Positions 31,943 through 49,038 of a stretch of DNA of 64,000 nt are shown here, piece after piece. The translations under genes and the position numbers were made by a program. How positions within the stretch are numbered: the stretch's first letter is position 1; every line of letters begins with the position of its first letter. The notes beneath the pieces were generated by a model. The model did no database searches, was not told the origin of the DNA, and worked only from the letters and a program-made list of their open reading frames with translations. This DNA is from an uncultured Verrucomicrobiota bacterium (GTDB lineage: Bacteria > Verrucomicrobiota > Kiritimatiellia > CAIKKV01 > CAITUY01), in the NCBI GenBank assembly GCA_964611575.1, contig CAZTAJ010000006.1, forward strand, positions 2,780 to 66,779. The letters run 5' to 3'.

Positions 31943-34900
31943 TCCTCCCCCCCGTGGCCGGAGACTTCGCGGAAGTAGCGCTTGATGAGGGGCCGGTATT
32001 CCTCGGGCCCCTCGCTGCCCGAGGCCTGCAGGACGTCTTCCTTTAACTCACCGTGAAGTCGAAGCCAGTCCTGCAGTTTCATACCCAACCGCCGGGCGAA
32101 GGTCGGAATGTCCTCGGATGCCTGGGCGTCCTCATTCAATCCCCCGCCGCCGGAAGCGGCCGTCTCCAGGGTGGCCGGGCGGGCGTTTGCGCCCAGGGCT
32201 TTTGCCTCGGCGGCGGCCTGGTCGGCGGCCTGCGCCAGTTGCGCCGCCGTTTGGGCGGCATCGATCGCCTTCCCGCTCATGGCGGTCTGGCGGGCGTCCT
32301 CATACGCCTTGGCCAGCGCTTCCCGGGTGGCCGGCGATACCGGCGCCGCACCGGCGGGCGTTGTCGGCGGGGTGGCGGGGATAACCATGGCCTGGGCGGC
32401 GTTCTGAAGATTCCGGGCCGCCTGTTGAAGGGTCTGCGCAGCGCCCTGCTGGGCTTGCCGGATGGTTTCCGCCGCCTGCTGCAGGTTTTGCGCAGATCGT
32501 TTTGCCGGATCCTCGCTTCGCCTGGCGACCTGCTCCATCTGCTGCGCGGCCTGGTCGGCCGCTTGCGCCGCCTGCGCCATCTCCCGCGCCGCCTGCCCGG
32601 CCGGAGGCCCCGCTGGCGAGCGCGCGAGCACCTCCTCGGTCTGCTCACGAATCACCGTGGCGGCCTGCGCCAGCGCGGCGACTTCAGCGGACAACGCCTG
32701 TTGCTGCTTCGCAAGCCGTCCCGAGAACGGGTCGCCGAGACCGTCTTCCTTTCCCTCTTTCCCGGCCAGAAGCGCGGCGGACTGGCGGCGCAGCACCTCC
32801 TGCTGGGTTGCCAGGTCCGACAGCCTGACCGCCGCCAGTTGCTCTTGCGCCCACTTGGCGGATGCGTTCGCCCTGGCAGCCGCATCGACGGCCACCTGGG
32901 CCTTTTCGATGGACGCCTGCGCCGCCTGCCCGGCATCGAGCCTGCCCTTTTGCGCGGCCTGCGGCGCCGCAGTTGCCGCCGCCTGCTGGGCTTGCTGGGC
33001 GGCTTGCTGGGCCGCTTGGGCGGACTGCTGGGAGGCCTGGGCCGCCTGCTGGGATTCCTGGGCGGACTGCTGGGTCTGCTGGGCGGCCTGCTGGGTTTGC
33101 TGGGCGACACGTTGCGCGCCGGTTTCGCTCTCTTTCGCCAACTGCGCGGCCTGGCGGGCGGCTTGCGCCCGGCGCGCTGTCTCCGCCTGCTCGGGCTTGC
33201 CCTTGCTCTGTTGAGCCTCCTTTTCCGCCTGCTCGGCGACCTGCGCGGATTGCCCGGCTGCCTGGCGGATCGCCGCCGCTTGTTGCGCTGTCTGTTGGGC
33301 GGCTTCGCCCGCCTTCTGGGCGGCCTGCTGGGCAGACTGGGCGGCTTGTTGGGCGATCTGCTGGGCGTCCTGCGCCTGGCGGGCCGATTGCTGGGCTTCA
33401 CCGGCAACAGCCGCCGCCGTGGGTTTCGGACCGGCGACCTCCTTGGCCTTCTCTGCGATGGCCCTGACTTGCTCGGCCTTCGCGCCCGCCTCCTGGGCGG
33501 CCTGTTCAACATTCCTGACCTGGCCGTTGGCCCCGGTTTGGCCGGCTTGCCGCTCGGCGTCGGAAGCCTTCTCGGCGGCCTGACGGGATGCCGCCGCCAT
33601 CGTCTGGGCAGTGTCGGCCAAGGCCTGGACCCGCTCGGCCTGTTCACGGGCGTTCCTTGATTTCTGACCGGTGCTCTGGGCGAGATCGTTCTGCCCGGTT
33701 TTCCAGACCCGCTCGGCCAGACGCCGGGCCTCGGCGGAGGGTCGGGTCATGCTCTGCGCTTCCTTTTGCACGGCGGCCGCCGCCTGTTCCGCCTGGGCAG
33801 CCTGTCGGGCCGCCTGTTGCGCGGCGCGCATGGCACGTTCGCGGGCCGACCGCGGCGTCTGGGTGGCCTCATCGGCGAGACGAGCCTGTTCGGCCGCGCG
33901 CCATGCCGCTTGCTGGGCGGCTTCGGATGCGGTCTCCGCCGCCTCGGCGTGGCCCTTCAGGGCCGCCAGGGGTTGTTCCCCGAAAGTCTTGTCGGTTGCC
34001 TGTTGTGCCACCTGCGCTTCCTCGCGCGCCTGGCGCGCCTCCTGGCGTGACTTCGCCGCCGCCTCCCCGGCCGCATCCGCCCGGGCTCGAGCCTCGGCTG
34101 CTTTGCCGCTGGATTCCTGAACCTGTCGCGGTGATGCCCCATTGACAAGCGCCTGATCCGTCTGCTTCTCAGCCTGCCCAGCTTCCTGCCGGGCGCGTTC
34201 CGCCGTCACTCCCGCCTTCAGGGCGGATTGGCTGGCTTCCCTCGCGGCATCGAGTGCCCGCTCCTCGGCCTGTACCGCGCGTTCCTGCGGGGACCCGCGT
34301 TCCACACCATTCACGTTCGCCTGGTGGGCGGCGGTGCGCGCGGCTTCCGCCAGTTGCTCGACCTGTTCCGCGGCATGAACCGCCTGTGCGGCAGCCGCGC
34401 GCCGGGCGGGTTCGGGCTGGTCCTCCCGCCCCGCCTGCTTCGCGGCATTCCGGGTTTCGGCCGCCGCCCGCTTGGCCTGGTCGGCCGCCTGCCCCGCCAC
34501 CTGACTCCATTGGCTGGCATCCTTGGCGGCCTGACGACTCTCGGCGGCCCGGCCTGTCATGTCCTTCACAAGATCCTGCTGCTTCGTCGTCTCCGCCCGC
34601 TTGACCAGGGCAGCGTCGGTGTCGGCCCGCATCTGCGCGCGTTCAGCGCCTTGTTCCGCGCGTTCGGCCGACTGGCGGGCCAGTTGCAGGCCGTCGTCGG
34701 CTTTCTGCAAGGCGGATGCCGCCATCCGGCCAGGGTCATCCGCACCCTGAACCGGATTCGGCGTCTCCATCCGCCGGTCGGCATCCTTCCGCAAGGCGTC
34801 CGCCACCCCGGTCTGGGCTTGTACGGCCGGCTCGGTATTCCCGGCGGCGAGTTCCTTGGCGGCCTGCTGCATGGGCGCACCTTGAAGCGCCGACAGGGGC

Positions 34901-37332
34901 TCACGGCGTGCAAGCGCCGCCAACTGGTCCTGGCGGGCGGCGAGTTCGCGCCCTTCGCGTTCCTGGTTTTGGAGACGATCCGTTTGCTGCCGGGTCAGGG
35001 CGGCTAGTTCGCCCTGGCGGGCCGCCAGTTCCGATGCCTGGCTGGCGGCGCTCACGGCAAGGTTGCTCGTGGCGACGGCCACCTGTTCCGGGGTTCCCGG
35101 CGCCTCCCGCGCCAGGGCGGCGAGACGATCAGCCACCTGGTCCTGGGCTTTCCGCCAGTCATTCGAGGCGGCGGCCGCCTGGGCAACGGCAACGCTGTTG
35201 CTGGCAGGTGGAGGAGCGGCCTGCTCCTGCGTCTGCCGGGTTTGCGCCAGGACGGTCTGCTTGTCCGTCAACCGATCCAGTTCCACCGCGCGTCGCACGG
35301 CGGAACGGGCAATATCGTGGTCCAGGATGGCGTGTTCGACCGCACGCAGCGAGGTCTCGATTTCGGCCGTGAGATTGCTGTTGATGTCCGTCCGCTCGGC
35401 AGGACGATCGACCAGCCTGAGTTGTCCGGCCATGTTCTCGGCTTTGCTGACATGATCATCCGCGAGCGCGATGAGATTGGTCGCGAGCGCCGCGAAGAAT
35501 CCCTTGTCGACATCGACGGCGATGTCGCGCAGGGAATGGTCCGCGGAGGCCAACGCATCCTGCAGGGCATCGATCTTCCGGGCGGTGTCGGCGCTCGGCG
35601 CCGCCTGTTGCGCGAGGGGCGCGTCCAGGGCGCGGGCCTGCTCTCGGGCCGAGGCGAGTTTTTGCTGCACTTGCTTGAGCCCCTGCTGGGCACGCTCCTC
35701 CTGGCTGGTCAGCACCTGCTCCTTCCAGGAAGCCGCCCGCTCATCGAGGAGGATGGTCACCGTGGCCGAATCCCCGGACTGGGGTCCCCCGAGCGGGCCC
35801 GGCAGGTTGTCCGTGGCGCGGAGCCGGAATGCGATGCGCGCCGCGCCGGCGAACAACGGGTCATCGAGCGCAATCTGCGTTTCGCCCTGCATCGCCTTGA
35901 CGCCCTGCTCCGCCTGGGCGGGCAGCGGCAGGGGCCGGATCGTTTCGTTGGACATCCCGGCGATGGTGAACACCAGGGCCAGGCCGGTCAGGCCCAGATC
36001 GTCCTCGGCGGAATAGGCGACCGGGAGACGGGCGTCACGGTTCAAACGCAATTCCCGCTGGCGGGGGTTGACGACAACCGCCACAGGCGGATTGTCCGGA
36101 ATCGACTGGATGGCGTATTCGAAAGGCGCATTGCGTAACCCGATCTCATCGACCAGGTTGAGGGTCCAGCTCCCGTTCAACTGCCGGGGCAGTGTCAGCG
36201 AAAAATCGTAAACCACACCCTGAGCCGCGCCCCGGGAAACGCCCTTGATGGTGTTGGTCGAGGAGGTTCTATCGATGAGCATGACCGCGGATGGCACGGC
36301 CTTGTTGACCGTCGCGGAAACGGTGATCTCGGAGCCGGCCAGCGCGCGGAGGGTGCCGGATCCGTCCCGGACCTGCGTGGCCACGAGCCGGGAGTATTCC
36401 GGGGGCCGACAGCGGACATCGAGATGCTCGATGATCGGCGGGATGGCCACCCGGACCGTGAAATAGCGGGTGAGCGCGTCGCCCGCATGGATGCGATACT
36501 GGAAGCCGGTCAGGACCGCGGGCAGGGTCACCGCAAAGGTCCGGCCCGTCCCGTTGGTGGACGCCGGCACCGCCACCATGTCCGTCACCGTTTCACGGCC
36601 CAGGCGATCCCGTTGCCGCAGGCGGGCCGAGGTGACGGCCGGACTGGCGGCCTGGATCGAAATCCTCAGGCGTGAGCCGGAGGCGATGAGCGTATCGCCC
36701 GGTTCGACGTGGAGGTCGGCGGCATACACATTGGGCAGATTCAGGAAAGGGGCCACGGCCCGCGCCAGCAGGAAGCGCGTCTGGCGGGGCCTGGCCAGCC
36801 ACACGGCGGCCAGCAGGGCAAGCACGAGGCCTGCGGTGACCGCGAACGGAATGGCGGCCCGGAACGAAATCTCATGCTGCGGCTTGAGCCGCACGGCGTC
36901 GCGCACGGCCTCTTCCGTCAACGCGCCGATCAGCACATCGGATCCGCGGATGGACGGCACGTCCCGGCTGCCGAGAAGTTCGACCACGGAACTCAGGCGT
37001 TCCTGGAGTTCGGGATGATGCGCCTCGATCAGGCGGGCGATGCCGGCCAGCGTGAAGGAACGCGCCAGCGGCCGGATCAGGAACCAGAAGAGCGACCCCG
37101 CCCAGATGGAGTAGGCCGTGCCGGTCATCACCCAGCGGGGCCAGCGCGCCAGGAGCGTAAAACCGGCATCGATCGACATGATGACCAGGAACGCCCCGAC
37201 GCCGGCCGCCCAGGCGGCGCAGAGCCCGCGGAGCATAATCAGGCACCGCGCACGGCCAATCAGCCGGCGCAGGGCCTGGATGATGGACGCCGGCAGAACC
37301 AGGGAGCCGTCGAGGGGCGTGTCGGCATTCAT
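31939..37332 (-). CDS. DUF4175-type giant membrane-anchored protein (1797 aa) with a ~1100-aa Ala/Gln/Glu/Arg-rich helical region
   Basis: N-terminal TM helices, a beta-rich region and then a very long low-complexity segment. The C-terminus reads EEYRPLIKRYFREV. Start at ATG 37332, sharing 1 nt with the upstream stop (TGATG). Confidence 0.7.
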   Translation of the reverse strand: MNADTPLDGSLVLPASIIQALRRLIGRARCLIMLRGLCAAWAAGVGAFLVIMSIDAGFTLLARWPRWVMTGTAYSIWAGSLFWFLIRPLARSFTLAGIARLIEAHHPELQERLSSVVELLGSRDVPSIRGSDVLIGALTEEAVRDAVRLKPQHEISFRAAIPFAVTAGLVLALLAAVWLARPRQTRFLLARAVAPFLNLPNVYAADLHVEPGDTLIASGSRLRISIQAASPAVTSARLRQRDRLGRETVTDMVAVPASTNGTGRTFAVTLPAVLTGFQYRIHAGDALTRYFTVRVAIPPIIEHLDVRCRPPEYSRLVATQVRDGSGTLRALAGSEITVSATVNKAVPSAVMLIDRTSSTNTIKGVSRGAAQGVVYDFSLTLPRQLNGSWTLNLVDEIGLRNAPFEYAIQSIPDNPPVAVVVNPRQRELRLNRDARLPVAYSAEDDLGLTGLALVFTIAGMSNETIRPLPLPAQAEQGVKAMQGETQIALDDPLFAGAARIAFRLRATDNLPGPLGGPQSGDSATVTILLDERAASWKEQVLTSQEERAQQGLKQVQQKLASAREQARALDAPLAQQAAPSADTARKIDALQDALASADHSLRDIAVDVDKGFFAALATNLIALADDHVSKAENMAGQLRLVDRPAERTDINSNLTAEIETSLRAVEHAILDHDIARSAVRRAVELDRLTDKQTVLAQTRQTQEQAAPPPASNSVAVAQAAAASNDWRKAQDQVADRLAALAREAPGTPEQVAVATSNLAVSAASQASELAARQGELAALTRQQTDRLQNQEREGRELAARQDQLAALARREPLSALQGAPMQQAAKELAAGNTEPAVQAQTGVADALRKDADRRMETPNPVQGADDPGRMAASALQKADDGLQLARQSAERAEQGAERAQMRADTDAALVKRAETTKQQDLVKDMTGRAAESRQAAKDASQWSQVAGQAADQAKRAAAETRNAAKQAGREDQPEPARRAAAAQAVHAAEQVEQLAEAARTAAHQANVNGVERGSPQERAVQAEERALDAAREASQSALKAGVTAERARQEAGQAEKQTDQALVNGASPRQVQESSGKAAEARARADAAGEAAAKSRQEARQAREEAQVAQQATDKTFGEQPLAALKGHAEAAETASEAAQQAAWRAAEQARLADEATQTPRSARERAMRAAQQAARQAAQAEQAAAAVQKEAQSMTRPSAEARRLAERVWKTGQNDLAQSTGQKSRNAREQAERVQALADTAQTMAAASRQAAEKASDAERQAGQTGANGQVRNVEQAAQEAGAKAEQVRAIAEKAKEVAGPKPTAAAVAGEAQQSARQAQDAQQIAQQAAQSAQQAAQKAGEAAQQTAQQAAAIRQAAGQSAQVAEQAEKEAQQSKGKPEQAETARRAQAARQAAQLAKESETGAQRVAQQTQQAAQQTQQSAQESQQAAQASQQSAQAAQQAAQQAQQAAATAAPQAAQKGRLDAGQAAQASIEKAQVAVDAAARANASAKWAQEQLAAVRLSDLATQQEVLRRQSAALLAGKEGKEDGLGDPFSGRLAKQQQALSAEVAALAQAATVIREQTEEVLARSPAGPPAGQAAREMAQAAQAADQAAQQMEQVARRSEDPAKRSAQNLQQAAETIRQAQQGAAQTLQQAARNLQNAAQAMVIPATPPTTPAGAAPVSPATREALAKAYEDARQTAMSGKAIDAAQTAAQLAQAADQAAAEAKALGANARPATLETAASGGGGLNEDAQASEDIPTFARRLGMKLQDWLRLHGELKEDVLQASGSEGPEEYRPLIKRYFREVSGHGGEE
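32975..33400. repeat. degenerate 9/12-nt coding repeats (NNN)CTGCTGGGC, encoding (A/S)QQ(A/S) runs
   Basis: Read directly, for example 32981-33105 ctgctgggcttgctgggcggcttgctgggccgcttgggcggactgctggga... Confidence 0.8.
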
Positions 37333-40300
37333 CAGGGCAACCTCACTCTCTTGCGCAGCACCCATTCGGCGGTCAGGAGCGCCAGGATCAGGATGAACCA
37401 CGGCCAGGAGTCCCACAGATCCATCTGGCGGCGCTCCACATGGGAGACCACCGCGGGACCCAGCCGTTTGACCAGGGACTCGAGCTCAATGGGCTCCAGA
37501 ACCCTGCCGGCGGTCAGCGCGGCCATGCGGGTCAGCAGCCCGCGGTCTGCCGCCAGTTCGACACACTCGGCATCCATCGCGGCGGTGACGGAGAACTCGG
37601 CGGAGACCGGTTGCGCCAGCGAGGCGCCCCACTCGCCGAGGTCGGCGTTGTCCAGTTCGACGCGGTACCGGCCTTCGGGCAGGGAACCAACTTCGGCGGC
37701 ATAGATGCCGGGCGATTCGGGCCGGTAGATCAATTGCCGGCGCAACACCTGCCGGTCGCCGGCCCGGATCGTGGCATGGGGGGCGGCATTGACGATCGGC
37801 ATGAACTGCGGCGTGGCAAGTCGGGCCAGGATGCGCACCGGGCTGCCGGACGGGTAGCGCGGCCGCGTGGTCCCGATGCGGATCGAGGACGATCCGGCGG
37901 CGATCCGGTCGGCGGTGGCCCAGCGGAGAATCTGCCCCCAGAACTTGTGGTGATACAAGTCACCCTTCCGGTAACGCAGCCGCCAGGTATGGTCGAACCC
38001 GAACATCAGCACGGAGCCGAAGCCGGCATGGTGCGTCACCAGGAGGGCATTGTCCCGTTCGAACTGCTGCTGTTTAAGAAGAGACTCGGCGTCGGGCACC
38101 TGGGCCATCCGCTCGACGCCAGGCGCCTGGGGGATGGACGCATAGGCCAGCACCGACGCTCCTTCCTTGGCGGTCAGGAACCCGTGCCGCCAATGGAGGT
38201 CGGGCATGTCATTCCAGGCCTCCAGATTCCGCGCGGCGTCATCGTCGAGTTTCATGAACACCGTGTTCCGGCCCTGCGCGGTCAGGGTCAGCCTGAAGTC
38301 CGGCTCGGGCGCAGTCAGCAGCGGACGGCTGGAGGACTTGAAGACCACCGGCAGGATCTCCGCCAGCGGGCTGCGGGCATAGGCGTGGGGCATGTGCCGG
38401 CTGCCTGCAATCACGATCAGAGACCCGCCCCGGTCCACCACGTATCTCCGGAGGATGTCCAGATTCTCGCGCCCGAGTTCCTGCGGATCCACGTCGCCCA
38501 GGATGATCACATCGAACTTCATCCATTCCGCTTCATTCTCGGGCGGCAGCGTGGCCTCCGCCCCGGCCGGGTCGCCCGCCACAGAGGCCGGCCGCGGCGT
38601 CGGGTTGGTGATTCCGCCAACCCGGTCGGGATGGAAGAGCAGATACTGGAGCCTGACGTTGCGATCCCGTTCCATGAAGAGGTTCTTGAGATAGCGGAAT
38701 TCCCAGCGGGGATAGCCGTCGATCAGCAGGACTTTGACCGGGTCGCCGCTGACCAGCACCGGCACGTGGCAGACGTTGTTGCTGACATCGACTTCGGAGG
38801 GGAAAGCCTGGATCGCCACGCGGTAGGCGTGCAGCCCGTTGGTCCTGGGAACATCGGACAGCAGAAGCGGCTGCCGGAAGGCTGCGGCATTGGGCCTGAC
38901 CGTGTTGGACGCCACCGCGTCGAGCCCGTCGAAGAGGGTCACCGTCACGTTGGTCCCGGACAGTCCATCCAGTTTCAACTCCAGGTTGAAGGAGACCCGG
39001 TCATTGGTGCTGACGGACTCGGGCGCATCGACGGCGGCCACCGCCGCATCCGTCGGGGGCACGCGGTTGCCGCCGAACACCACGGGAAAAATCGGGACGC
39101 GTTGAACGCCAAGCTTGCGGGCCGTCGGCTCCACCGACTCGGCGGCGTTGTGCCGGCCGTCGGTCAGGAGGACGATGCCGGCGGTGTGTTCCGGCAGGAG
39201 GTCGGCGGCAACCTTTTCCAGGGCGGCGGCAAGATCGGTGCCCTGCCGCTGTTTGACAGGCGGCGCCCCGATCCTGGCCGCGGCGGCCGGGGCGACCATG
39301 TCGGCTACCCGCCATTCCGTCGGGAAGGCCCCGATGGTGTAGAGCATGACGCCGTATTCACGGTCCAGGGTCTCCAGCAGGCCGACCTTGGCCGGCTTGC
39401 CGCCCGGCTTGACCGGCCCGTCGTCCCCGCCCACCAGCAGACGGCGCGCCACGAGGCTACGGCGAAGGGAGACCACCCCGTCGATGGCCTTGCGATCCGC
39501 CTCCGACAGGGACTGGTAGAAGCCCGCGTCAACCGCATCCGCCACCGTCGCCAGATGGCCCTCACAGACCGCGAGGGTCGCCCCGGCTTTTTGCAGCGCC
39601 TGCCGCACCGTTTCATATGCCGGGCCGCTGTTGGTCGAGGACGCCCGCCACTCGCCGGTGAGTTTGCCGGCTTCTTCGAGCGGCGCCTCCGCTTCCGAGG
39701 CCAGTTGTTCCGCCAGGCGTTTCAGGTCCGCCAGAATGCCGCTCTCCTTCTGAAGAAACGGGACCCCGGCGGCCGTGCGCAGAGCGTGGGCCGTGTCCGT
39801 CACCGTTTCGCGGATGCGGTGGAGAGCCTTGCGCTGGGAGCGCGCGTTGCGCTCCAACTGGCGGACGCGGAGCGTGGTTTCGGTTTCGGCCAGCGCATTC
39901 AGCCCGTCGGCCTGGGCGAGCAGATCCTGCCCGGCCTCCCTCAACCCGATGGCGGTTCGATCGAGTTGCAGGGTGCGCCGCGCCGCAGGCACGCCGAGGG
40001 CTTCGGCCAGACGCACCTTCTCGGCAGGGGTCAGGTTGTTGTCGGGGACCTGCATGGAGGCGCTGACGTCGAGCAGCACCACCACACGGCGTTGAATCTT
40101 GCGGAGGGTGTTGAAGACCAGCACCGGCTGGCACAGCATGACGACCACGCTCAGCACAATGGCGGCGCGCAGCGCCGAGAGGGCGATGCCGGCCCGGCGG
40201 GAGACGAGCTGTCGCTCGACCCGGCCCAGGGCAATGACGCCCTCGGCGAGCATGGCGCCGCCGAGCAACAGCGGCCAGATCCGCCAGTGTGTCGCAAACA

Positions 40301-40514
40301 CGACAACATGCCCGGCCGCCTCGACGGCACTGAGCAGGGTCAGGAAACCCAGCGCCGTGCGTCCGGCGAAGGCCGGGATCTGCCACGCCCTGACCAGGCT
40401 CCGGCTCCAGACATGGGATCGCACCCAGATGGCCAGCAGCAGGATGACCGCCGGCAACAGGACGATCAAGGGCATCTCAGGCGTCATGACGGTCTGGAGT
40501 GTGTCAGCGTCCAT
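37332..40514 (-). CDS. TM protein with an interrupted vWA domain and a class-I glutamine-amidotransferase-like domain (Bat-operon type)
   Basis: Several N-terminal TMs, MIDAS VVVLLDVSASM, and a distant GIVLLTDGRHN. Then VKVLLIDGYPRWEFRY...FDVIILGD...GGSLIVIAG and a C-terminal TM. 11-nt overlap with the upstream gene. Confidence 0.65.
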   Translation of the reverse strand: MDADTLQTVMTPEMPLIVLLPAVILLLAIWVRSHVWSRSLVRAWQIPAFAGRTALGFLTLLSAVEAAGHVVVFATHWRIWPLLLGGAMLAEGVIALGRVERQLVSRRAGIALSALRAAIVLSVVVMLCQPVLVFNTLRKIQRRVVVLLDVSASMQVPDNNLTPAEKVRLAEALGVPAARRTLQLDRTAIGLREAGQDLLAQADGLNALAETETTLRVRQLERNARSQRKALHRIRETVTDTAHALRTAAGVPFLQKESGILADLKRLAEQLASEAEAPLEEAGKLTGEWRASSTNSGPAYETVRQALQKAGATLAVCEGHLATVADAVDAGFYQSLSEADRKAIDGVVSLRRSLVARRLLVGGDDGPVKPGGKPAKVGLLETLDREYGVMLYTIGAFPTEWRVADMVAPAAAARIGAPPVKQRQGTDLAAALEKVAADLLPEHTAGIVLLTDGRHNAAESVEPTARKLGVQRVPIFPVVFGGNRVPPTDAAVAAVDAPESVSTNDRVSFNLELKLDGLSGTNVTVTLFDGLDAVASNTVRPNAAAFRQPLLLSDVPRTNGLHAYRVAIQAFPSEVDVSNNVCHVPVLVSGDPVKVLLIDGYPRWEFRYLKNLFMERDRNVRLQYLLFHPDRVGGITNPTPRPASVAGDPAGAEATLPPENEAEWMKFDVIILGDVDPQELGRENLDILRRYVVDRGGSLIVIAGSRHMPHAYARSPLAEILPVVFKSSSRPLLTAPEPDFRLTLTAQGRNTVFMKLDDDAARNLEAWNDMPDLHWRHGFLTAKEGASVLAYASIPQAPGVERMAQVPDAESLLKQQQFERDNALLVTHHAGFGSVLMFGFDHTWRLRYRKGDLYHHKFWGQILRWATADRIAAGSSSIRIGTTRPRYPSGSPVRILARLATPQFMPIVNAAPHATIRAGDRQVLRRQLIYRPESPGIYAAEVGSLPEGRYRVELDNADLGEWGASLAQPVSAEFSVTAAMDAECVELAADRGLLTRMAALTAGRVLEPIELESLVKRLGPAVVSHVERRQMDLWDSWPWFILILALLTAEWVLRKRVRLP

Positions 40515-43020
40515 GCAACGACCTCTCCATCAATCCCGACAGGCGGGCCTTCATGGCTCGAATGTTCTCGGCGGGGGATCGCAGGACCACCGGGTCCGCC
40601 TGGTGGAGTCGCCGGTGGACCGTGATCCAGCGGGTCAGCGCGACCTCGGCCACCCACGTCAGCAGCGCGCACAGGGCCAGGATCTTCCACAGTTCCTGTC
40701 CCGGCACCTTGCCGGAGAAGGACATGACGAGTTCGTCAAGGCTCTCCGGGAGGAACAGGTCGACGTGGCTGCGGATCGCCGCGAGATCGGCATCCGTCAA
40801 CAGCGTGAGGGCGCTTTCGTCAGGCTGATGATTCACCGTGAAGAGCGCCTCGGGAGCGCCGTTCGTGCCGATCCCCGCCGCCATGGCCAGCGCCGCGGGC
40901 AGGCGCATCCGGCACAGGCCGGGTTCGCGGGTTTCCGAGAATCGAACCATGAACCGGCCATTCCTCCGCTCAACCCGGGCCGGGCGGGTTTCGCCAAACG
41001 GCAGGACCACCGTCACGGGATCGGCGTCCGACCCGGTGGGCGACCCCGCCGGCAAGGTGCCCGACAACGCCCATTCCGTGCCCGGCCGGATGTTGCAGTC
41101 CACCAAGGTCGGCGCCGCCAGGAAGTACACAAGCTCGTGGATCAGGGGCACAAAGCACTTCAGGGACGACAGGTTGCTGTCGCGTCGATCGAAGGCCATG
41201 GGCGTCATGAGGACAATGCCCTTGCCTAGTTGACGCTCCACCAGCCAGGGCTCCTGCGAATCGAACTGACCGCCGATCCGGGCCTGGGAGGACAACCGGT
41301 CCACGGTCATCTTCCAGTAAGCCGACACCAGGCTGAACCGCGCGTCCGACTGATCCGGTTGCGCCACCAGGCGCAGGGCGGGATGGGTGAATGACTTGAG
41401 GTCGAGACGGAGCGGTTCGGCGAGGACCACGCGCTCCTTCAGTTCGGCGGGGGTCACGGCCTCGCCCGACGGCGCCTGCCAGGCATTGTAGAAGCCCGGC
41501 TCCGCACGGCCGCCCGGCGCAATCAGCAGCCCGCCGCCGGCCTTGACGAAGGCGCTCAGGCGATCCGCCACGGCGGAAGGCAGGCGGGGGACATCGGCAA
41601 GGATGACGACCCGGTAGGGCGACAGGTCGGTGACGGCGACAACGCTGGCGGCCTCCACGATCGTTGGGTTCACCAGGAACGACGGTTCCGCCAGGGAAGG
41701 CTCCGTGTCGCGGGCCGCCTCGCGCGGGGTCAGCGCGGACCGGATGAGGCTGGACGTCTTGCGGAAGAAGAACCGCTCGGTTGAGGCGCCCTCGACCAGG
41801 AGCACCGGCAGGCGGTCCAGGACATGGACGACCCGTTCGAGCGTATTGTCCGCAACCAGGTCGTCCTCCACGGCCACCTGTGCCTTCAGGACACGGTATC
41901 CCGGCTGCTCGAACGTGTGGTTGAAATGGAACACCTCGGCCGTCTGCGGCAGCAGATCCTTCACGAGGGGGATCCGCTCGACCCGCTGACCGTCGACCAG
42001 CAACTCCACGGCGGCGGGTTGCAGGGGACCCTGGCCGGCATTGACGAGGGTGACATCCACCTTGACCGGGCGGTCGGTGCCGACGACATCGCGCGAGAGG
42101 CGGATCTCCGAGACCAGCGCATTACGAAATGACTTCGGGACCGGCAGCCGCCGGCAGACGACCCGCGGCGGCGAGGGCAGCGCCTTGAAGCCGGCGGCCA
42201 CGAACTGCCAGCGGGCCTCGGCCTGCGGGTCCCATCCCGTCGCATGTCCATCGGTGAAGATCACCACCGTCTTGGCGGCGTTGGGTCCCTCGGCCAGCAG
42301 GCCCGCGGCCAGGTTCAGGGCTTCCAGCGTGGCCATGCTCCCGCCGGCGGGCCGGCACTCCGGGCTCTTCAGGGCCCGCTGCAACTCACGCCGGTCGGAG
42401 GTCGGGCGGCGGACCAGCGGTTGCGGAACGGGGCCGCCCAGGATGAGGGCGCAGGCATCGCCGGGGCGCGAGGCCTCGATGAGCGCGCGGGCTTCTTCCA
42501 CGGCGCGGCTGAAATTGCTCCGGCCCTCCACGGCAAGCGTCATGGACAGCGACGCGTCCAGGATGATCACCGTATCGCCACCGCCCGCCGTCAGCCAGCG
42601 GCGCGCCTGGATCCACCGTTCCAGCAGGGACACCAGCACCGCGACCACCAGCACCGTGAGGGCGATCCCCAGCAGCCGCCGGCGGAGGACTTCGTTCGTC
42701 CACAACACGGTGGCGATCCCGGCGCAGAGCACGGCGAGCAGGATGGCAGGCAGAATCAGCACCCAGGGAATCGCCGACAGGCTGGGCAGGAACGGGCGGG
42801 CCATGGCCAGCGCAAGCAGCGCCAGGCCGAGGCAGCGGACACACAGCAGGATGCCATCCTCGATCTGCACGCGCCGGCTGCGCGCGGCGATGGAGGCGAC
42901 CAGGAACTGCATGGCGCCCCAAGGGATCGGACGCGGTTTGCTGCGGTTCAACAGGTGAATGACGATCGGGATCGCGATGGCCGCGAACCCGAGCAACATG
43001 GATACTTTCAAGAACGTCAC
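40504..43020 (-). CDS. BatA_N (aerotolerance-regulator N-terminal) + vWA + GATase1-like domain protein
   Basis: MLLGFAAIAIPIVIHLLNRSK double-TM N-terminus, MIDAS VIILDASLSM and VVIFTDGHATG. A GATase1-like segment follows: LPVLLVEG...VVILADV...GGGLLIAPG. GTG start. Confidence 0.8.
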   Translation of the reverse strand: MTFLKVSMLLGFAAIAIPIVIHLLNRSKPRPIPWGAMQFLVASIAARSRRVQIEDGILLCVRCLGLALLALAMARPFLPSLSAIPWVLILPAILLAVLCAGIATVLWTNEVLRRRLLGIALTVLVVAVLVSLLERWIQARRWLTAGGGDTVIILDASLSMTLAVEGRSNFSRAVEEARALIEASRPGDACALILGGPVPQPLVRRPTSDRRELQRALKSPECRPAGGSMATLEALNLAAGLLAEGPNAAKTVVIFTDGHATGWDPQAEARWQFVAAGFKALPSPPRVVCRRLPVPKSFRNALVSEIRLSRDVVGTDRPVKVDVTLVNAGQGPLQPAAVELLVDGQRVERIPLVKDLLPQTAEVFHFNHTFEQPGYRVLKAQVAVEDDLVADNTLERVVHVLDRLPVLLVEGASTERFFFRKTSSLIRSALTPREAARDTEPSLAEPSFLVNPTIVEAASVVAVTDLSPYRVVILADVPRLPSAVADRLSAFVKAGGGLLIAPGGRAEPGFYNAWQAPSGEAVTPAELKERVVLAEPLRLDLKSFTHPALRLVAQPDQSDARFSLVSAYWKMTVDRLSSQARIGGQFDSQEPWLVERQLGKGIVLMTPMAFDRRDSNLSSLKCFVPLIHELVYFLAAPTLVDCNIRPGTEWALSGTLPAGSPTGSDADPVTVVLPFGETRPARVERRNGRFMVRFSETREPGLCRMRLPAALAMAAGIGTNGAPEALFTVNHQPDESALTLLTDADLAAIRSHVDLFLPESLDELVMSFSGKVPGQELWKILALCALLTWVAEVALTRWITVHRRLHQADPVVLRSPAENIRAMKARLSGLMERSLHGR

Positions 43021-43036: not shown

Positions 43037-44026
43037 TCACTTGATCAGACTCCGCCGGTGCGCCAGGTAAGTCGCCAGCGCCATATCGAACTCCTGGCGG
43101 GTCGAGAAAGGCACGTAGTCGATTCGCATCTCCCCGCACCCCTTTTCAATGGCCGCGAGAAACGCGCGCACCTCGCCGAGGTACGCGGAACGCAGGGACT
43201 CGGGGTCGAGGTCCAGGTGGTGCCCGGCTTGTTCGAGATCCTTGAACTGGCTCCAGCGCTTGAAGGGAAACGTCAATTCCTCGTCGGCCATGACATGCAT
43301 GAGGATGACGTCGTGCTTGCGGAAACGGAAATGATGCAGCGCCTTGAGAAGATCCTCGGCGCGGTCGAAGAGATCGGAAATCACGATCAGCAGGCCGCGG
43401 CGGTGCACCCGCTCGGCGATGTCGTGGAGCACCGGCGCCAGCGCCGTCTCCTCGCCCGGTTCCGTCTGAAACAGCTCGTCCAGCAGAACGCTCATGTGAT
43501 TGGCCCGGCACCGGGAGGGCAGGTAGCGGCGGATCGCGGCGTCAAAGGTCACCAGGCCCACGGCATCCTGCTGGTTGAGGAGGAGTCGGACGAGCGAGGC
43601 GGCCAGGAAACGGGCATACTCGAATTTGCTGAGCGGGTTGCCCTTGTGGCGGGCCGCGTTCTCCCCGCGATAGGCCATTGACCCGGACGCATCCAGCAGG
43701 ATGGTCGCCCGCAGATTCGTCTCCTCGATGTACTGCTTGATGTAGTACCGGTCGGACTTGGCGTACGCCCGCCAGTCCAGGTCGCGCAGGTCATCGCCCG
43801 GCGCATAGGCGCGATGTTCCGCGAACTCCACGGAGAAGCCGCGATACGGGCTGCGATGGCGGCCGGAAATGAAACCCTCCACCGGGTGGCGGGCCAGCAA
43901 CTCGACCCGGCTGATCTTGGCCATCGCCTCGGGATCCAGCAGTTGGAGATAGGCCGGAGCGGAAGACGACCGGGGACCGGAACGGTCCGCGACCGCCTGG
44001 CAATGGAGGCTTGCTAACGTATCCAC
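43037..44026 (-). CDS. DUF58 domain protein (vWA-like, MoxR partner)
   Basis: GRHRSPYRGFSVEFAEHRAYAPGDDLRDLDWRAYAKSD...ILLDASGSM. Confidence 0.85.
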   Translation of the reverse strand: MDTLASLHCQAVADRSGPRSSSAPAYLQLLDPEAMAKISRVELLARHPVEGFISGRHRSPYRGFSVEFAEHRAYAPGDDLRDLDWRAYAKSDRYYIKQYIEETNLRATILLDASGSMAYRGENAARHKGNPLSKFEYARFLAASLVRLLLNQQDAVGLVTFDAAIRRYLPSRCRANHMSVLLDELFQTEPGEETALAPVLHDIAERVHRRGLLIVISDLFDRAEDLLKALHHFRFRKHDVILMHVMADEELTFPFKRWSQFKDLEQAGHHLDLDPESLRSAYLGEVRAFLAAIEKGCGEMRIDYVPFSTRQEFDMALATYLAHRRSLIK

Positions 44027-44046: not shown

Positions 44047-45099
44047 TCAGGCGAGGCGGTCCGGCGCGGACGGTTGGATCTCCTCAAGGAGACGATGGAC
44101 GATCTGGTCGGTCGAGATGCCGGCGGCATCGGCATTGAAGGTGGGGACGATGCGATGGCGCAGAATGGCCACCGCCATCTCACGGACATCCTCCGTCGTG
44201 GCGTGATAGCGGCCGTGGAGAATGGCGCGCGCCTTCGCCGCCAGCATCATGTTGATGGTCGCCCGGGGGCCGGCCCCCCACTGGACGAGTTCACGGATGA
44301 AAGCCGGCGAGGAGGGGCCCGGCCGGCTGGCGCGCGCCAGGTCACGGGCATACTCGAAGACGTGGTCGGCCGCCGGAACGCGGCGGACAATGTGCTGCAG
44401 CTTGACGATGTCGTCGCCGGACAGGACCGTCGTGAGCTCCGCCTCGTAAGTCCCGGTGACTTTCTTGGCAATGTCGAGTTCCTCGGCGGCGGAGGGGTAG
44501 TCCACCTTGATCATGAACATGAACCGGTCCAACTGCGCCTCGGGCAGCGGGTACGTGCCTTCCTGTTCGATGGGATTCTGCGTGGCCAGCACAAAGAAGG
44601 GATCCGGCAGTTTGAAGTCGGCATCGCCCACGGTGACGATCCGTTCCTGCATGGCCTCCAGCAGGGCGGCCTGGGTCTTCGGCGGTGTGCGGTTGATTTC
44701 GTCGGCCAGCACCATGTTGGCAAACAGGGGGCCGCGGACGAACCGGAAGACGCGCTTGCCGGTGGTGCGGTCCTCCTCAAGCACATCCGTGCCGGTGATG
44801 TCGGCGGGCATCAGGTCGGGAGTGAACTGGACGCGCTTGAACGTCAGGTGCATGACCCGGGACAGGGTGCTCACGAGCAGCGTCTTCGCGAGGCCGGGAA
44901 CGCCGACCAGCAAGGCGTGGCTGCGGCAGAAGATGGCGACGAGGACCTGCTCGATGACCTGGTCCTGCCCGACGATGGCCAGCCGCAGTTGCTCGGTCAT
45001 CTTCAGATACGCCGCATTCAGCGCCTTGACCGTTTCGATATCGCCCTGGGGCTCCAGTGCCGGCAGGATGGAAGAGTGTTGTTGCACGTCGCGTTGCAT
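44047..45099 (-). CDS. moxR: MoxR-family AAA+ ATPase
   Basis: Walker A GVPGLAKT, Walker B VLADEINR and TQNPIEQEGTYPLPEAQLDRF. GGAGG RBS before ATG 45099. Confidence 0.9.
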   Translation of the reverse strand: MQRDVQQHSSILPALEPQGDIETVKALNAAYLKMTEQLRLAIVGQDQVIEQVLVAIFCRSHALLVGVPGLAKTLLVSTLSRVMHLTFKRVQFTPDLMPADITGTDVLEEDRTTGKRVFRFVRGPLFANMVLADEINRTPPKTQAALLEAMQERIVTVGDADFKLPDPFFVLATQNPIEQEGTYPLPEAQLDRFMFMIKVDYPSAAEELDIAKKVTGTYEAELTTVLSGDDIVKLQHIVRRVPAADHVFEYARDLARASRPGPSSPAFIRELVQWGAGPRATINMMLAAKARAILHGRYHATTEDVREMAVAILRHRIVPTFNADAAGISTDQIVHRLLEEIQPSAPDRLA

Positions 45100-45155
45100 T
45101 CGGCCTCCGTTTACCTCTGTGGAAACTGGTCAAGTGTCATCTTGATGAATCATAA

Positions 45156-45171
45156 TGCATAATCCATGCCA
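45156..45171 (-). promoter_or_regulatory. candidate sigma54 (-24/-12) promoter TGGCATGGATTATGCA for the moxR operon
   Basis: The minus-strand read matches TGGCACG-N4-TTGCW with correct GG/GC spacing and two mismatches. It lies 57-72 nt upstream of the moxR ATG. Confidence 0.5.
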
Positions 45172-45255
45172 CAACGGCGCCCGGCGCAGACAAGGCTGAA
45201 ATGGGCCGGTTTTTGACGTTTTCAACCGTTGGCCGGCGCAGCCCCGGGCGAACCG

Positions 45256-45271
45256 TGCATCCCAGTATGCA
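45256..45271. promoter_or_regulatory. candidate enhancer (UAS) inverted repeat TGCAT-N6-ATGCA
   Basis: Lies about 85-100 bp upstream of the -24 element. Further ATGCA-like motifs occur at 45155-45160 and 45297-45303. Confidence 0.25.
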
Positions 45272-45357
45272 GGTTGTCCGGCCAGGCGTATTCAAGTGTA
45301 TGCACATGCCTGTTGACCCGCGGGGGTCGGGTGAAGTAGCCTCCCCGCTCACAACCC

Positions 45358-46749
45358 ATGGCCAACGAAGACACAACCATCCAGCGCGCCGGCAAGGGCG
45401 GATCGCACACCGTGATGCTCACCCGCAAGGGAACGCCGCGCTCGCTGTTGCTGCAGAAGTCGAAGCTCCTGATCATCAACGGGCCCGAGCAGGGGCGCGA
45501 GGTGCTGATCGACAAGGATAGCTTCACGATCGGGGCCGGGTCGCAGAACGACCTGATCGTGCCCGACCCGGCGGCCTCACGCCGCCATTGCGAGATCCAG
45601 CAGCGCGTCGAGGGCTTCCTGCTGCGCGACCTGGGCAGCACCAACGGGACCACCGTCCAGGGCGTGCGGGTGTGCGAGGTGTACCTGACGCAGGGCGTCG
45701 AGTTCCAGGTGGGAACGACCCGGCTGGTGTTCTGTCCTTTGCAGGAGACGGTGTCCTATCCCCTGAGCGCCCGCGAGAGTTTCGGGCGTTTGAACGGGCG
45801 GAGCACGGCGATGCGGCGGGTGTTCCACCTGGCCGAAACGTATGCCCGCACCGATGCGGCCGTGTTGATCCAGGGCGAAACGGGGACGGGGAAGGAACTC
45901 CTGGCGGATGCCCTGCATGCGCACAGCCCGCGAAGCAAGAAACCGTTCGTGGTGATCGACTGCGGCGCGCTGGCCAAGGGCGTGATCGAAAGCGAGTTGT
46001 TCGGGCACGCCAAGGGCTCGTTCACGGGGGCCGGCGCCGAACGCATCGGCGCCTTCGAACATGCCCACGGGGGCACGGTCTTCCTGGACGAAATCGGGGA
46101 GTTGGAACTGCACCTGCAACCGAAACTGCTGCGCGCGCTGGAGAAGAAGGAAGTGCGGCGGCTGGGCGCCAACACGGTGCGGCATGTCGACGTCCGGATC
46201 ATCGCGGCAACGAACCGGAATTTGGAAAGGGAAGTGCGCGAGGGGCGGTTCCGCGAGGATCTCTATTACCGGTTGTCGATCGTGAAGATCGAGATGCCGC
46301 CCTTGCGCCAGCGCAAGGATGACATCCCCCTGCTGGTGCAGTGTTTCCTGAAGGAGTTCACGGGATCCGGCGAACCGACGGCCTGGCCCGATTTCGAACG
46401 GAGCATGATGCTGTTCCGACAGCACGAATGGCCCGGCAACGCCCGGGAACTGCGGAATGTGATCGAGATGGCCGTGCACGGATCGGCGGGACGGATCGAT
46501 CTCGGCGCCTGCCTGACCTTGGGCCGCATCAGCGAAGCGGAAGCCGGCGCCGAGCCGGCCGAGTCGTCCGACATGCCCTTCAAGCTGGCGAAGAACCAGT
46601 TGGTGGATCACTTTGAGAAGGACTATATCGAGAAGCTTCTGGAACGGAACGGGGGCAACATCTCCCGCGCCGCCCGCGAGGCGCAGATTGAGCGCGCCTA
46701 CCTCCAGCGACTGGTCCGCAAACACGGGCTGAACCCGCGCGACCGGTAG
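45358..46749 (+). CDS. FHA-domain sigma54-dependent transcriptional activator (bEBP, Fis-type HTH)
   Basis: N-terminal FHA (FTIGAGSQNDLIVPDPAASRRHCEI...GSTNGT). AAA+ core with Walker A GETGTGKE and a GAFTGA-type loop KGSFTGA. C-terminal HTH GGNISRAAREAQIERAYLQRL. Confidence 0.9.
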   Translation: MANEDTTIQRAGKGGSHTVMLTRKGTPRSLLLQKSKLLIINGPEQGREVLIDKDSFTIGAGSQNDLIVPDPAASRRHCEIQQRVEGFLLRDLGSTNGTTVQGVRVCEVYLTQGVEFQVGTTRLVFCPLQETVSYPLSARESFGRLNGRSTAMRRVFHLAETYARTDAAVLIQGETGTGKELLADALHAHSPRSKKPFVVIDCGALAKGVIESELFGHAKGSFTGAGAERIGAFEHAHGGTVFLDEIGELELHLQPKLLRALEKKEVRRLGANTVRHVDVRIIAATNRNLEREVREGRFREDLYYRLSIVKIEMPPLRQRKDDIPLLVQCFLKEFTGSGEPTAWPDFERSMMLFRQHEWPGNARELRNVIEMAVHGSAGRIDLGACLTLGRISEAEAGAEPAESSDMPFKLAKNQLVDHFEKDYIEKLLERNGGNISRAAREAQIERAYLQRLVRKHGLNPRDR

Positions 46750-46760
46750 GGCACGCACAG

Positions 46761-46784
46761 GTGTGAGGTGGGAGGTGGGAGGTG
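46761..46784. repeat. (GGTGGGA)-type heptamer tract gtgtgaggtgggaggtgggaggtg
   Basis: Read directly, between the convergent stops at 46749 (+) and 46795 (-). Confidence 0.8.
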
Positions 46785-46794
46785 TTTCCCCCGC

Positions 46795-49038
46795 TCAGTG
46801 CTCCTCGAAGATCGCGCGCTCCCACACGCCGGCGTACCGTTCCAGGATTCCCCTCAACGGCGTGTGGGCATGCAGCCAGTAGACGGGCCGGTAGAGGGCT
46901 CGCAAGGTGTCGACCGGGACCGCCGTGGTCGCCCCGCGATTCGACAGGCCGCGGAAAGCAGGGCCGATACTGAGCCCGTAGAAGAGGGCAGCGCAAACCA
47001 ACCCCACCCCCCAGGTGACGGCGGTGCGAATGCGACGACGCAGCCGGATGCGATCCAGCATCTGCCGGGCGGCGACCGAGTCGTGTTTGAGCCGGCTGAG
47101 CACGTCACGGACCATGCGTTCCGCCACGCGCAGATGCCCCTCACTCAGCGCCAGATCGGCCTGCGCGAGAAGCTTGTCGATCTGCTCAACTTGGGCGGCG
47201 GCCTTCTTCATCATGGCGTCGGTCGGCGAGGGCTCCGTCGTCATATCGCGAAGCGCCTCACAGGCCCTCACACATCCCTCGAAGTCCTGGGCTTTCAACG
47301 CCTGGCCGGCCTCCTGCGTCAGGCTCTCCATCCGCTGTTGCGCCGCATCCAGTTCCGCCTTCAGTTTTTCGGCGTCTTTGGACAGCGCAACCACCGCCTT
47401 GGCGTATTCGCTGGGTTCGACGCCGGGCTGCGTGCCGTCGGGCAGGGTCAGGGCGCCCTTGAGCGAGGGGAACTGGGATTCGAGCCGGCTGACGGACAGC
47501 AGCCGGTCCTCGATGCCCGCCAGCGATTTCTGCGCCTCCCGCGGCTGCTTCTTGACCAGCAGTTGCCGGGCGCGGTTCAACTCGGTCCGGAGGGCAAGGA
47601 TGTTGCGTTCCGCAATGCGCCAGGGAATCTCGCTGCGCAGGCCCTGATACTCGGGGCCGTCGTCGAGCACCCCGTATTCGTTGAGCCGCTCGCGGACCTC
47701 CTCGTAGTTCTGCCGGTCCAACTCCACGGCGATGGACTGGGTCAGCTCGTCCTTGCGCTGAAGCGCCCAGGTGGCCGTCTCGCCGAGTTCGAGGATCTCG
47801 CGCTTGAGTTCCTGGCCCTTCCCCCCGCGGGGATGGAAGTGATCGATGCCGTCCATGGCGTCCTTGATCCGCCCGAAATCCTTCTGGCGGCGGTATTCCC
47901 GCAACCGGCTGAGCATGGCCCGCATGTCCTCGAAGGTCTTGATGTCCGTCGAACACTGGCCGCAGAACCGGACGCCCACCCGGGTCTCGCCATCGCACTC
48001 GGGACACCGCTCCATCCCGTCCCAGTTGCAGTGCGAACAATAGCGGTTGGCCACGGGGCTGAGCGCATTGCACCATTTGCAGCGCCACATGCCGGGATCG
48101 GTGAGCGGCGACAGGAAGTCGCCGGCCGATTGGGCGAGGACCTCCGCAAAGTCGTGGGCGGATGGCCAGCGCTGCCTGGGATCCTGTTCCAGCGCTTTCA
48201 GCAGCATGGGGCGCAGGTAGTCGGGAACCCGGCTGTCCCGGAAGAACCGCGGATTTTCGCCGGTCAGGCAGAAATACAGGATGCCGCCCAGGCTGTAGAC
48301 ATCGGACCGCGCATCGGCCAGGCCGGAATCGGTTTCCTGCTCGGGCGCGGCATACCCCAGGGAAAGCATCCGGGTCCCGGTCATGGTGAGCTTGGCGGCA
48401 TCGGACGCGGTCTGGCGCGCGATGCCGAAGTCCACAATGCGCGGTTCGCCGTGCTCGTCGAGGAGGATGTTGGAGGGCTTGAGGTCACGGTGAATCACGC
48501 CGTGCCGGTGGGCGTAGTCAATGGCGGAGCAGAGCTTCTTGACCAGGACCACCGACGCGCGAAGCATGAGGGGGCCGCCGTTCTGCTCCAGCTTCTGCTC
48601 CAGGTTGAGGGAGGGCGCCGGCCAGTCGGGGGCGGGCGGCTTGCCGGGGCCCGCCACATACTCCATGACAATGTGCGGTTCAGCCCGTTCGGTGTCGAAG
48701 TCGTACAGTTTGACGATGTAGATGTGGTTGAGGGAGGCGATCAACTGCGCCTCCCGTGAAAACCTTTCCCTCATCGGGGCGTCGGCCAGGAAGGCGCGAC
48801 TGAGACGCTTGATTGCGACGAAGCGGCCCAGCTTCACATCCTTGGCGAGATAGACCACGCTCATCCCGCCGCGCCCGATCTCGCTGAGGATCCGGTAAGG
48901 GGAGACCGGCTCCTCGCCCGGTGGCGGGGCATCGTCCGACAGGGCCCCCGGCACCAGCAGCGTGGGCGTCTCACGCCCCATGTGCGTCGTCAGCGGCGGA
49001 TCGTCCCCGCTCGGTCTGGCGCTGGTTGTCGTCTGCAT
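46795..49038 (-). CDS. Ser/Thr protein kinase with double zinc-ribbon, long coiled coil and C-terminal TM
   Basis: GRGGMSVVY, VAIKRL, HRDLKPSNIL, DFG and APE motifs. These are followed by CKWC...CSHC...CPEC...CGQC zinc ribbons, a helical region and a TM helix GVGLVCAALFYGLSIGPAF. Confidence 0.85.
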   Translation of the reverse strand: MQTTTSARPSGDDPPLTTHMGRETPTLLVPGALSDDAPPPGEEPVSPYRILSEIGRGGMSVVYLAKDVKLGRFVAIKRLSRAFLADAPMRERFSREAQLIASLNHIYIVKLYDFDTERAEPHIVMEYVAGPGKPPAPDWPAPSLNLEQKLEQNGGPLMLRASVVLVKKLCSAIDYAHRHGVIHRDLKPSNILLDEHGEPRIVDFGIARQTASDAAKLTMTGTRMLSLGYAAPEQETDSGLADARSDVYSLGGILYFCLTGENPRFFRDSRVPDYLRPMLLKALEQDPRQRWPSAHDFAEVLAQSAGDFLSPLTDPGMWRCKWCNALSPVANRYCSHCNWDGMERCPECDGETRVGVRFCGQCSTDIKTFEDMRAMLSRLREYRRQKDFGRIKDAMDGIDHFHPRGGKGQELKREILELGETATWALQRKDELTQSIAVELDRQNYEEVRERLNEYGVLDDGPEYQGLRSEIPWRIAERNILALRTELNRARQLLVKKQPREAQKSLAGIEDRLLSVSRLESQFPSLKGALTLPDGTQPGVEPSEYAKAVVALSKDAEKLKAELDAAQQRMESLTQEAGQALKAQDFEGCVRACEALRDMTTEPSPTDAMMKKAAAQVEQIDKLLAQADLALSEGHLRVAERMVRDVLSRLKHDSVAARQMLDRIRLRRRIRTAVTWGVGLVCAALFYGLSIGPAFRGLSNRGATTAVPVDTLRALYRPVYWLHAHTPLRGILERYAGVWERAIFEEH

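Follow-up and report, generated by a model that had tools for sequence, protein, structure and literature searches.

A 64-kb window (the whole stretch of 64,000 nucleotides analysed here) from an uncultured Kiritimatiellia bacterium carries a six-gene moxR operon and, divergent from it, a gene for an FHA-type bacterial enhancer-binding protein (bEBP). We think it probable, without pressing the point, that moxR is transcribed from a sigma-54 promoter, that the FHA-type bEBP activates this promoter from paired upstream sites, and that a neighbouring Ser/Thr kinase provides the input, most likely through the FHA module. For the promoter-plus-activator part, conservation, geometry and a negative control give good support. 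The analysis shows the sequence elements, how they are conserved and spaced, and the family-wide association of the sites with this bEBP; we infer sigma-54 dependence in vivo, binding by the bEBP and the kinase input.

In the mechanism we propose, the 258 bp that separate moxR from the bEBP gene would act as a bidirectional control region. The sigma-54 promoter (45156–45171, minus strand) would drive the six-gene operon and stay silent until the FHA-type bEBP acts. Dimers of the bEBP would bind 18-bp palindromes at 45254–45271 and 45287–45304, three helical turns apart, form an ATPase ring, loop over a probably bent spacer and open the promoter. The bEBP probably also feeds back on its own expression, because the same sites sit just upstream of its sigma-70-type promoter. 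The neighbouring kinase, a tail-anchored Ser/Thr kinase, would most likely set the activity of the bEBP via the N-terminal FHA module. The features on which this picture draws are as follows.

44047–45099, minus strand: moxR, a MoxR ATPase (AAA_3, E=1.7e-61), first gene of the operon
45104–45108, minus strand: ribosome-binding site of moxR, GGAGG, 5–9 nt from the ATG; its GGAG block is kept in the alignment of orthologues
45156–45171, minus strand: predicted sigma-54 promoter, TGGCATGGATTATGCA, 57–72 nt upstream of the moxR ATG (45099)
45210–45222, no strand assigned: phased A/T tracts read from the sequence, TTTTTGACGTTTT, between the activator sites and the promoter
45254–45271, minus strand: predicted proximal activator site B, TGCATACTGGGATGCACG, matrix score 15.4, centre about 118 nt upstream of the predicted start
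45287–45304, minus strand: predicted distal activator site A, TGCATACACTTGAATACG, matrix score 19.4, centre about 151 nt upstream of the predicted start
45313–45342, plus strand: predicted sigma-70-type promoter of the bEBP gene, TTGACC-N18-TAGCCT; the TTGAC and TAGCCT blocks are kept in the alignment of orthologues and in loci L089 and L006
45358–46749, plus strand: FHA-type bEBP, 463 residues, matching FHA (PF00498, E=5e-16), Sigma54_activat (PF00158, E=4e-69) and HTH_8 (E=3e-7)
46795–49038, minus strand: Hanks-type Ser/Thr kinase, 747 residues, convergent with the bEBP gene (Pkinase, E=5e-41)

In TGGCATGGATTATGCA, the GG (−25/−24, 45170–45169) and the GC (−13/−12, 45158–45157) are 10 bp apart and match TGGCACG-N4-TTGCW. 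From the position of the −24/−12 elements, transcription of moxR would start near 45145 and give a 46-nt leader. Rfam and tRNA scans of the window returned no match, so the leader contains no known RNA element. The original prediction had placed a sigma-54 motif at this position with the correct GG/GC spacing, and had also described the six-gene operon, a divergent FHA-containing bEBP with an intact AAA+ core and helix-turn-helix (HTH), and a convergent, membrane-anchored Hanks-type kinase with two zinc ribbons. All of these hold.

Relatives of the locus were gathered by exact-protein look-ups and by scanning metagenomes for IERAYLQR, an HTH peptide specific to the family; the named members of the bEBP family come from Kiritimatiellae/Kiritimatiellia and Lentisphaerae metagenome-assembled genomes, which places the bacterium in the Planctomycetes–Verrucomicrobia–Chlamydiae (PVC) group. 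Ten non-redundant divergent moxR–bEBP loci, with bEBP identities of 77–100%, were aligned. All ten have a TGG(C/T)AY-N6-TGC(A/T/G) element in the right orientation 40–80 nt before the moxR ATG, and with loci L170 and L171 included the sigma-54 motif lies upstream of moxR in 12 of 12 non-redundant related loci. Across the ten intergenic regions the mean column identity is 47%, and the invariant columns fall into five blocks: the TGG.A and TGC of the promoter, two copies of TGYATAC, the TTGAC and TAGCCT of the bEBP promoter, and the ribosome-binding site of moxR. A sigma-70 consensus promoter was sought on the moxR strand of the window and not found. The negative control is a Planctomycetota moxR operon whose MoxR is 78% identical and which has no such bEBP nearby; it carries neither a sigma-54 motif nor activator sites, and TTGACT-N16-TATATT stands in place of the sigma-54 motif.

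Two other candidate sigma-54 targets in the window were rejected. TGGCATGGATCTTGAT (22720–22735, plus strand) has a good −24 element but GA for GC at −12 and no operator sites nearby, and is probably non-functional; TGGGATGGTTTATGCA, at 61803, likewise lacks operator sites. The phased A/T tracts of TTTTTGACGTTTT, similar to A-tracts seen in most orthologous regions, weakly suggest that the DNA here may be intrinsically bent or may bind integration host factor (IHF).

The paired sites upstream of the promoter share an 18-bp imperfect palindrome, TGYATAC-N4-nnRYRCA, which looks like the operator of the FHA-type bEBP family. The two 18-bp sites have their centres 33 bp apart. Site A abuts the −35 element of the bEBP promoter, and 93 bp, or 8.9 helical turns, separate the GG element from site B, a conserved block in the alignment of orthologues. 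All moxR-linked loci have the pair, at a centre-to-centre spacing of 32–34 bp (11 loci), and the distances from site B to the GG (53, 73, 85–86 and 93–96 bp) correspond to 5.05, 6.95, 8.1–8.2 and 8.9–9.1 helical turns. Every spacing is thus close to an integral number of turns, and helical phase has been kept across insertions and deletions. The inverted repeat TGCAT-N6-ATGCA reported earlier at 45256–45271 is indeed there, but as part of the 18-bp site B; we rejected the symmetric repeat as the binding unit because L089 and L006 do not keep its left arm. That the repeat belongs to a longer site, and that a second site lies at 45287–45304, had been missed.

A position matrix built from 20 sites gave 12.6 matches per 100 kb in family loci versus 1.4 in unrelated loci, and in the window it matches sites A and B and nothing else. 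In an independent test on 52 family loci that had contributed nothing to the matrix, 42 carried a site between −250 and +30 relative to the bEBP start; site density in this interval was 3.7 per kb versus 0.013 per kb elsewhere, an enrichment of approximately 275-fold. Together with the HTH segment IERAYLQRL, which is invariant in the bEBP family, this upstream enrichment points to the motif as the operator of the family. The unrelated loci (L009–L088) encode FHA proteins returned by a reference-genome scan keyed on the generic peptide RDL[GN]STNGT. That scan was rejected as a source of synteny, having returned unrelated FHA proteins; its loci served instead as controls and as a sample of further FHA-bEBPs.

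In two rearranged loci the bEBP gene lies apart from moxR. In L171 (bEBP 65% identical), a two-gene insertion has parted the bEBP gene from moxR, to a distance of approximately 2.3 kb. The operator pair, 33 bp apart and 95 bp from the GG, remained with the moxR promoter, and none is left at the bEBP gene. In L170/L007 (bEBP 68% identical), six genes spanning approximately 10 kb lie between bEBP and moxR. The sigma-54 promoter is retained about 40 nt upstream of moxR in both arrangements, even though the bEBP gene is distant. The insertion in L171 (3536–6001) encodes a product with DruA and DDE_Tnp_1_assoc matches, plus a 153-residue open reading frame.

The bEBP itself comprises an N-terminal tail containing Thr18, an FHA domain (residues ~35–127), an AAA+ domain (146–376) and a Fis-type HTH (419–450). 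Its AAA+ core is canonical, with Walker A GETGTGKE at 173, GSFTGA at 220 and FLDE at 242, and matches the structures of ZraR, FleQ, NtrC1 and PspF at E=1e-52 to 1e-73. None of the NCBIfam equivalogs scores up to its cut-off. The protein combines a C-terminal HTH with cognate upstream sites that are predicted by enrichment. The leader of its gene is only ~8–15 nt long and lacks a Shine-Dalgarno sequence, and in L089 a mere 8 nt separate the −10 element from the ATG; the bEBP mRNA is probably leaderless or nearly so.

The kinase has a kinase domain (residues 48–265), a double zinc ribbon (320–362), approximately 300 helical residues, a single hydrophobic transmembrane segment (673–691) and a 56-residue C-terminal tail. 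Its catalytic motifs are complete (VAIK at 74, HRDLKPSN at 183, DFG at 203 and APE at 231). It has four CxxC pairs, and the Pfam DZR match, at 24.1 bits, falls under the gathering score of 27.3. The tail (692–747, encoded at 46795–46965) is kept among orthologues as VY.PV.WLH..T.L...LE.YA..W and may serve outside the cytoplasm as a small element for sensing or docking. Across 873 kb of family loci, the only kinase-domain homologues are those beside the bEBP gene, apart from one weak match (27%) far off in the window. The kinase gene is convergent with and downstream of the bEBP gene in the clade of the window, in L007 and in L171, and is still nearby where an aminotransferase (L095) or a sulfatase (L093) gene has been inserted between them. 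In L132, L139, L153 and L161, a homologue with 51% identity in the kinase domain and a zinc-ribbon region is instead divergent and upstream of the bEBP gene. Altogether, approximately 12 of 16 non-redundant loci with a bEBP identity of at least 64% have the kinase, as do the four distant loci in the other orientation. This neighbourhood evidence is good but not conclusive, and an input to the bEBP from kinase through phosphothreonine to FHA domain is plausible.

The FHA fold is clear. Among solved FHA domains, GarA and OdhI come closest (E=1.6e-11 to 1e-10), and the AlphaFold model is a beta sandwich with a predicted local distance difference test (pLDDT) score of ~90. Ahead of the domain, all 102 sequences that cover the region have Thr18, in a tail that is otherwise variable. 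It is followed by three hydrophobic residues (T-V-M-L, 45409–45420), with Leu, Ile, Met or Val at +3, a motif that resembles the FHA ligand pT-x-x-L/I and the cis switch of GarA and OdhI.

Several observations weigh against the reading we favour. The first two would fit a sigma-54-like motif without function, with moxR under a sigma-70-type holoenzyme and the paired sites doing no more than autoregulate a bEBP whose sigma-54 targets lie elsewhere. TGGCAY-N6-TGCW has a single match in the window, TGGCATGGATTATGCA itself, at an expectation of 0.38 per window (both strands) and with at least one match in 29 of 100 shuffles; the window-wide count of the promoter motif is not significant. The operator precedes the bEBP gene in most family loci, including those with no sigma-54 promoter nearby, so its presence in the window could reflect autoregulation alone. 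An RpoN box was searched for in the window and in all fetched family loci, with no match. Many of the loci are closely related, moreover, and locus counts such as 12 of 12 do not equal independent events. Yet the −24 and −12 elements are invariant in those 12 loci amid diverged DNA, and the expectation of 0.38, scaled by our own arithmetic to the 258 intergenic bp on the correct strand, falls to about 8e-4. The helical phasing between sites and promoter is preserved, the moxR strand shows no sigma-70 consensus, and the outgroup operon, which lacks this bEBP, has a clear sigma-70-type promoter instead. The sites in L171 stayed with moxR and not with the bEBP gene, which speaks against autoregulation as their only role. 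We consider a non-functional promoter very improbable.

The other adverse points bear on how the bEBP would sense the kinase. In characterised FHA domains that bind phosphothreonine, the 'GR' motif supplies an Arg that contacts the phosphate. In the bEBP of the window, whose residues 1–130 are encoded at 45358–45750, Ala60 aligns with the phosphate-binding Arg of GarA, and among 117 family members this position is Ala (58), Ser (55), Thr (2) or Leu (2), and in none the canonical Arg. The family departs from the canonical signature (G-R ... S-x-x-H ... N) at this residue, with G59, S74, H77 and N96 invariant. The original prediction, which had overlooked the missing Arg, overstated the case in treating the domain as an established phosphothreonine reader. 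Most of the other full-length FHA-bEBPs (mainly from Myxococcota and Deltaproteobacteria; L009–L083) also lack the Arg, in a sample biased by having been picked for similarity to the bEBP of the window, and stand-alone FHA proteins from the same scan retain it. Yop-YscD_cpl, a Pfam family with the FHA fold, scores slightly above the FHA model on the bEBP. No kinase lies beside the bEBP gene in the close relatives L006, L091 and L094, in L008, or in most members at 50–60% identity. These findings would suit a bEBP that activates the sigma-54 promoter of moxR but whose FHA domain reads no phosphothreonine and does not take its input from the kinase; it could be a phospho-independent regulatory or oligomerisation domain that might keep the AAA+ domain inactive until another protein or a ligand binds. 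The rest of the phosphate pocket (Ser74, Arg/Lys75, His77, Thr95 and Asn96) is nevertheless invariant or nearly so, which is hard to explain without a phospho-ligand, and the kinase–bEBP neighbourhood recurs in two arrangements and survives insertions. On balance we find such a domain unlikely here. A further reading invokes the intramolecular switch between FHA domain and phosphothreonine that GarA and OdhI use: the kinase would phosphorylate Thr18, the FHA pocket would bind it within the molecule or between subunits, and an altered contact between FHA and AAA+ domains would permit or block ring assembly. The invariance of Thr18, the hydrophobic trio after it and the residues at +3, which match the classic preference of FHA ligands, argue for this reading, as do a similar Thr-hydrophobic motif visible in distant FHA-bEBPs and the closeness to GarA and OdhI (E of about 1e-11). 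AlphaFold, however, predicts a beta strand at residues 17–21 (pLDDT ~54–76), so the conservation of Thr18 could be structural, and the canonical Arg is missing; we regard a cis switch as quite improbable.

Of the circuit that the original prediction drew, the link between the sigma-54 promoter and the FHA-bEBP has strong comparative support, from conservation, phasing, the operator, L171 and the outgroup; the kinase step is circumstantial, coming from gene neighbourhood. The missing Arg and the invariant Thr18 together caution against assuming canonical phosphothreonine reading in FHA-bEBPs. It is conceivable, albeit distinctly doubtful, that FHA-bEBPs as a class, in Myxococcota and in PVC bacteria, use a non-canonical switch in which a partner kinase phosphorylates Thr18 and the Arg-less pocket, with its Ser-Arg-x-His and Thr-Asn kept, captures it in cis or between subunits and so gates assembly of the AAA+ ring. 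If true, a GarA-like switch would have been grafted onto sigma-54 activators and, in this lineage, would link a kinase anchored in the envelope to the expression of a MoxR/VWA envelope machine.

The operon consists of six co-directional genes, from 45099 down to 30911 on the minus strand, with gaps of at most 20 bp or overlaps. After moxR, they are as follows.

43037–44026, minus strand: DUF58/VWA protein (DUF58, E=5e-42)
40504–43020, minus strand: 838-residue protein with a BatA N-terminal double-transmembrane domain and a VWA domain (BatA, E=2e-15; VWA_2; TIGR02226)
37332–40514, minus strand: 1060-residue protein with weak VWA_2/DUF7408 matches under the Pfam cut-offs
31939–37416, minus strand: 1825-residue protein, with a membrane segment at its N-terminus and a long coiled-coil-like region rich in Ala, Gln and Glu
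30911–31942, minus strand: 343-residue prenyltransferase/squalene-cyclase-like alpha-alpha toroid protein, overlapping the preceding gene by 4 nt and probably the final gene of the operon

With a MoxR AAA_3 ATPase followed by DUF58 and BatA/VWA membrane proteins, this is a gene set of the MoxR/Bat (aerotolerance) type. The 1060-residue protein is also kept in L006, L089 and L170. A family search with the 1825-residue protein gave no match; after the membrane segment, more than 1000 of its residues are low-complexity, Ala/Gln/Glu-rich and coiled-coil-like, and its region (31939–37416) has a GC content of 0.71, an AT skew of −0.43 and a short 21-bp tandem repeat at 32981–33106. In the Planctomycetota loci L172 and L173 (4480–5000), a closely related moxR–DUF58–BatA operon has a PA14 domain in its BatA-VWA protein and a prenyltransferase-like gene upstream. 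Sigma-70-type promoters precede that operon, so the control of this operon type differs between PVC lineages.

The same module of sites and promoter also precedes other neighbour genes within the family, in L004 and in L124, L131, L132, L139 and L153. L004 (6200–9810; Kiritimatiellae metagenome-assembled genome GCA_028716365.1) has three sigma-54 promoters, each with paired operator sites approximately 115–150 bp upstream, and these precede genes for paralogous secreted Thr-rich proteins of 176–191 residues, divergent from the bEBP gene. In L124 (5186–7480) and L153 (10187–12500), and also in L131, L132, L139 and L156, a sigma-54 promoter lies 16–34 bp past the bEBP stop codon, and the gene behind it encodes a polytopic membrane protein of 741–755 residues. 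Pfam searches with these alternative target proteins of L153 and L004 returned no match. In the clade of bEBPs at 50–60% identity, most loci have no sigma-54 promoter within 10 kb of the bEBP gene, and moxR is therefore not the family-wide neighbour or target.

Myxococcota and PVC bacteria commonly have FHA-type sigma-54 activators, whose kinases, operators and targets are, to our knowledge, mostly unassigned. The locus described here offers a candidate kinase, an activator, an 18-bp operator, a phased tandem enhancer and a defined target operon. Because all of these parts are conserved across uncultured relatives, the circuit is directly testable. It also provides a first regulatory lead for an operon of the MoxR/Bat type, and inducible, kinase-linked, sigma-54-dependent expression would suggest a stress or envelope response. 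A literature search found no report linking MoxR or Bat operons to sigma-54 control, and nothing on rpoN of Kiritimatiella.

Compared with known systems, the module appears to be of a fairly ordinary kind, a classical bEBP/sigma-54 enhancer with an FHA sensory domain, attached to a MoxR/Bat-type target for which our literature search found no earlier report of sigma-54 control. The target operon shares MoxR AAA_3, DUF58 and BatA-type VWA proteins with the Bat/MoxR-VWA operons of Bacteroides, Leptospira and Borrelia (PMC3557215, PMC5700661) and differs from them in its additional 1060- and 1825-residue proteins, its toroid protein and its predicted regulation by sigma-54 and a bEBP. A Hanks-type kinase that signals to an FHA-containing, DNA-binding transcription regulator is known from EmbR–PknH (PMC8636726), which the pairing in the window, drawn from gene neighbourhood, resembles. 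EmbR is, however, a sigma-70-type activator of the SARP family, and its FHA domain is C-terminal and canonical. GarA and OdhI of Actinobacteria likewise have an N-terminal tail with a conserved Thr before the FHA domain; unlike the protein studied here, in which the FHA domain has Ala in place of Arg and is fused to an AAA+ activator, they are single-domain metabolic regulators that keep the Arg.

FHA-domain enhancer-binding proteins of Myxococcus xanthus were reportedly described by Jelsbak, Givskov and Kaiser in 2005 (reference 91 in PMC12288465). The FHA-bEBPs of Myxococcota and Deltaproteobacteria align with the bEBP of the window over their full length at 35–50% identity. As in M. xanthus, the domain order is FHA, sigma-54 AAA+ and HTH, and the idea of Ser/Thr kinases feeding sigma-54 activators through an FHA domain is shared; here the phylum is a PVC one, the operator and targets are different, the kinase gene is conserved next to the bEBP gene, and the cis elements are directly legible. 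The FHA-type subclass of bEBPs is known from Myxococcus. The closest parallel in architecture is with NtrC at glnAp2 and other classical bEBP promoters: a GG-N10-GC promoter is preceded, 100–150 bp upstream, by two imperfect palindromes for dimer binding some three turns apart, and the activator joins a canonical AAA+ domain, bearing a GAFTGA-type loop, to a Fis-type HTH at the C-terminus. The NtrC sites at glnAp2 lie near −108 and −140. Unlike NtrC, the bEBP of the window has an FHA domain and not a receiver, is predicted to recognise TGYATAC-N4-nnRYRCA through an HTH bearing IERAYLQRL, and appears to serve a target of the MoxR/Bat type.

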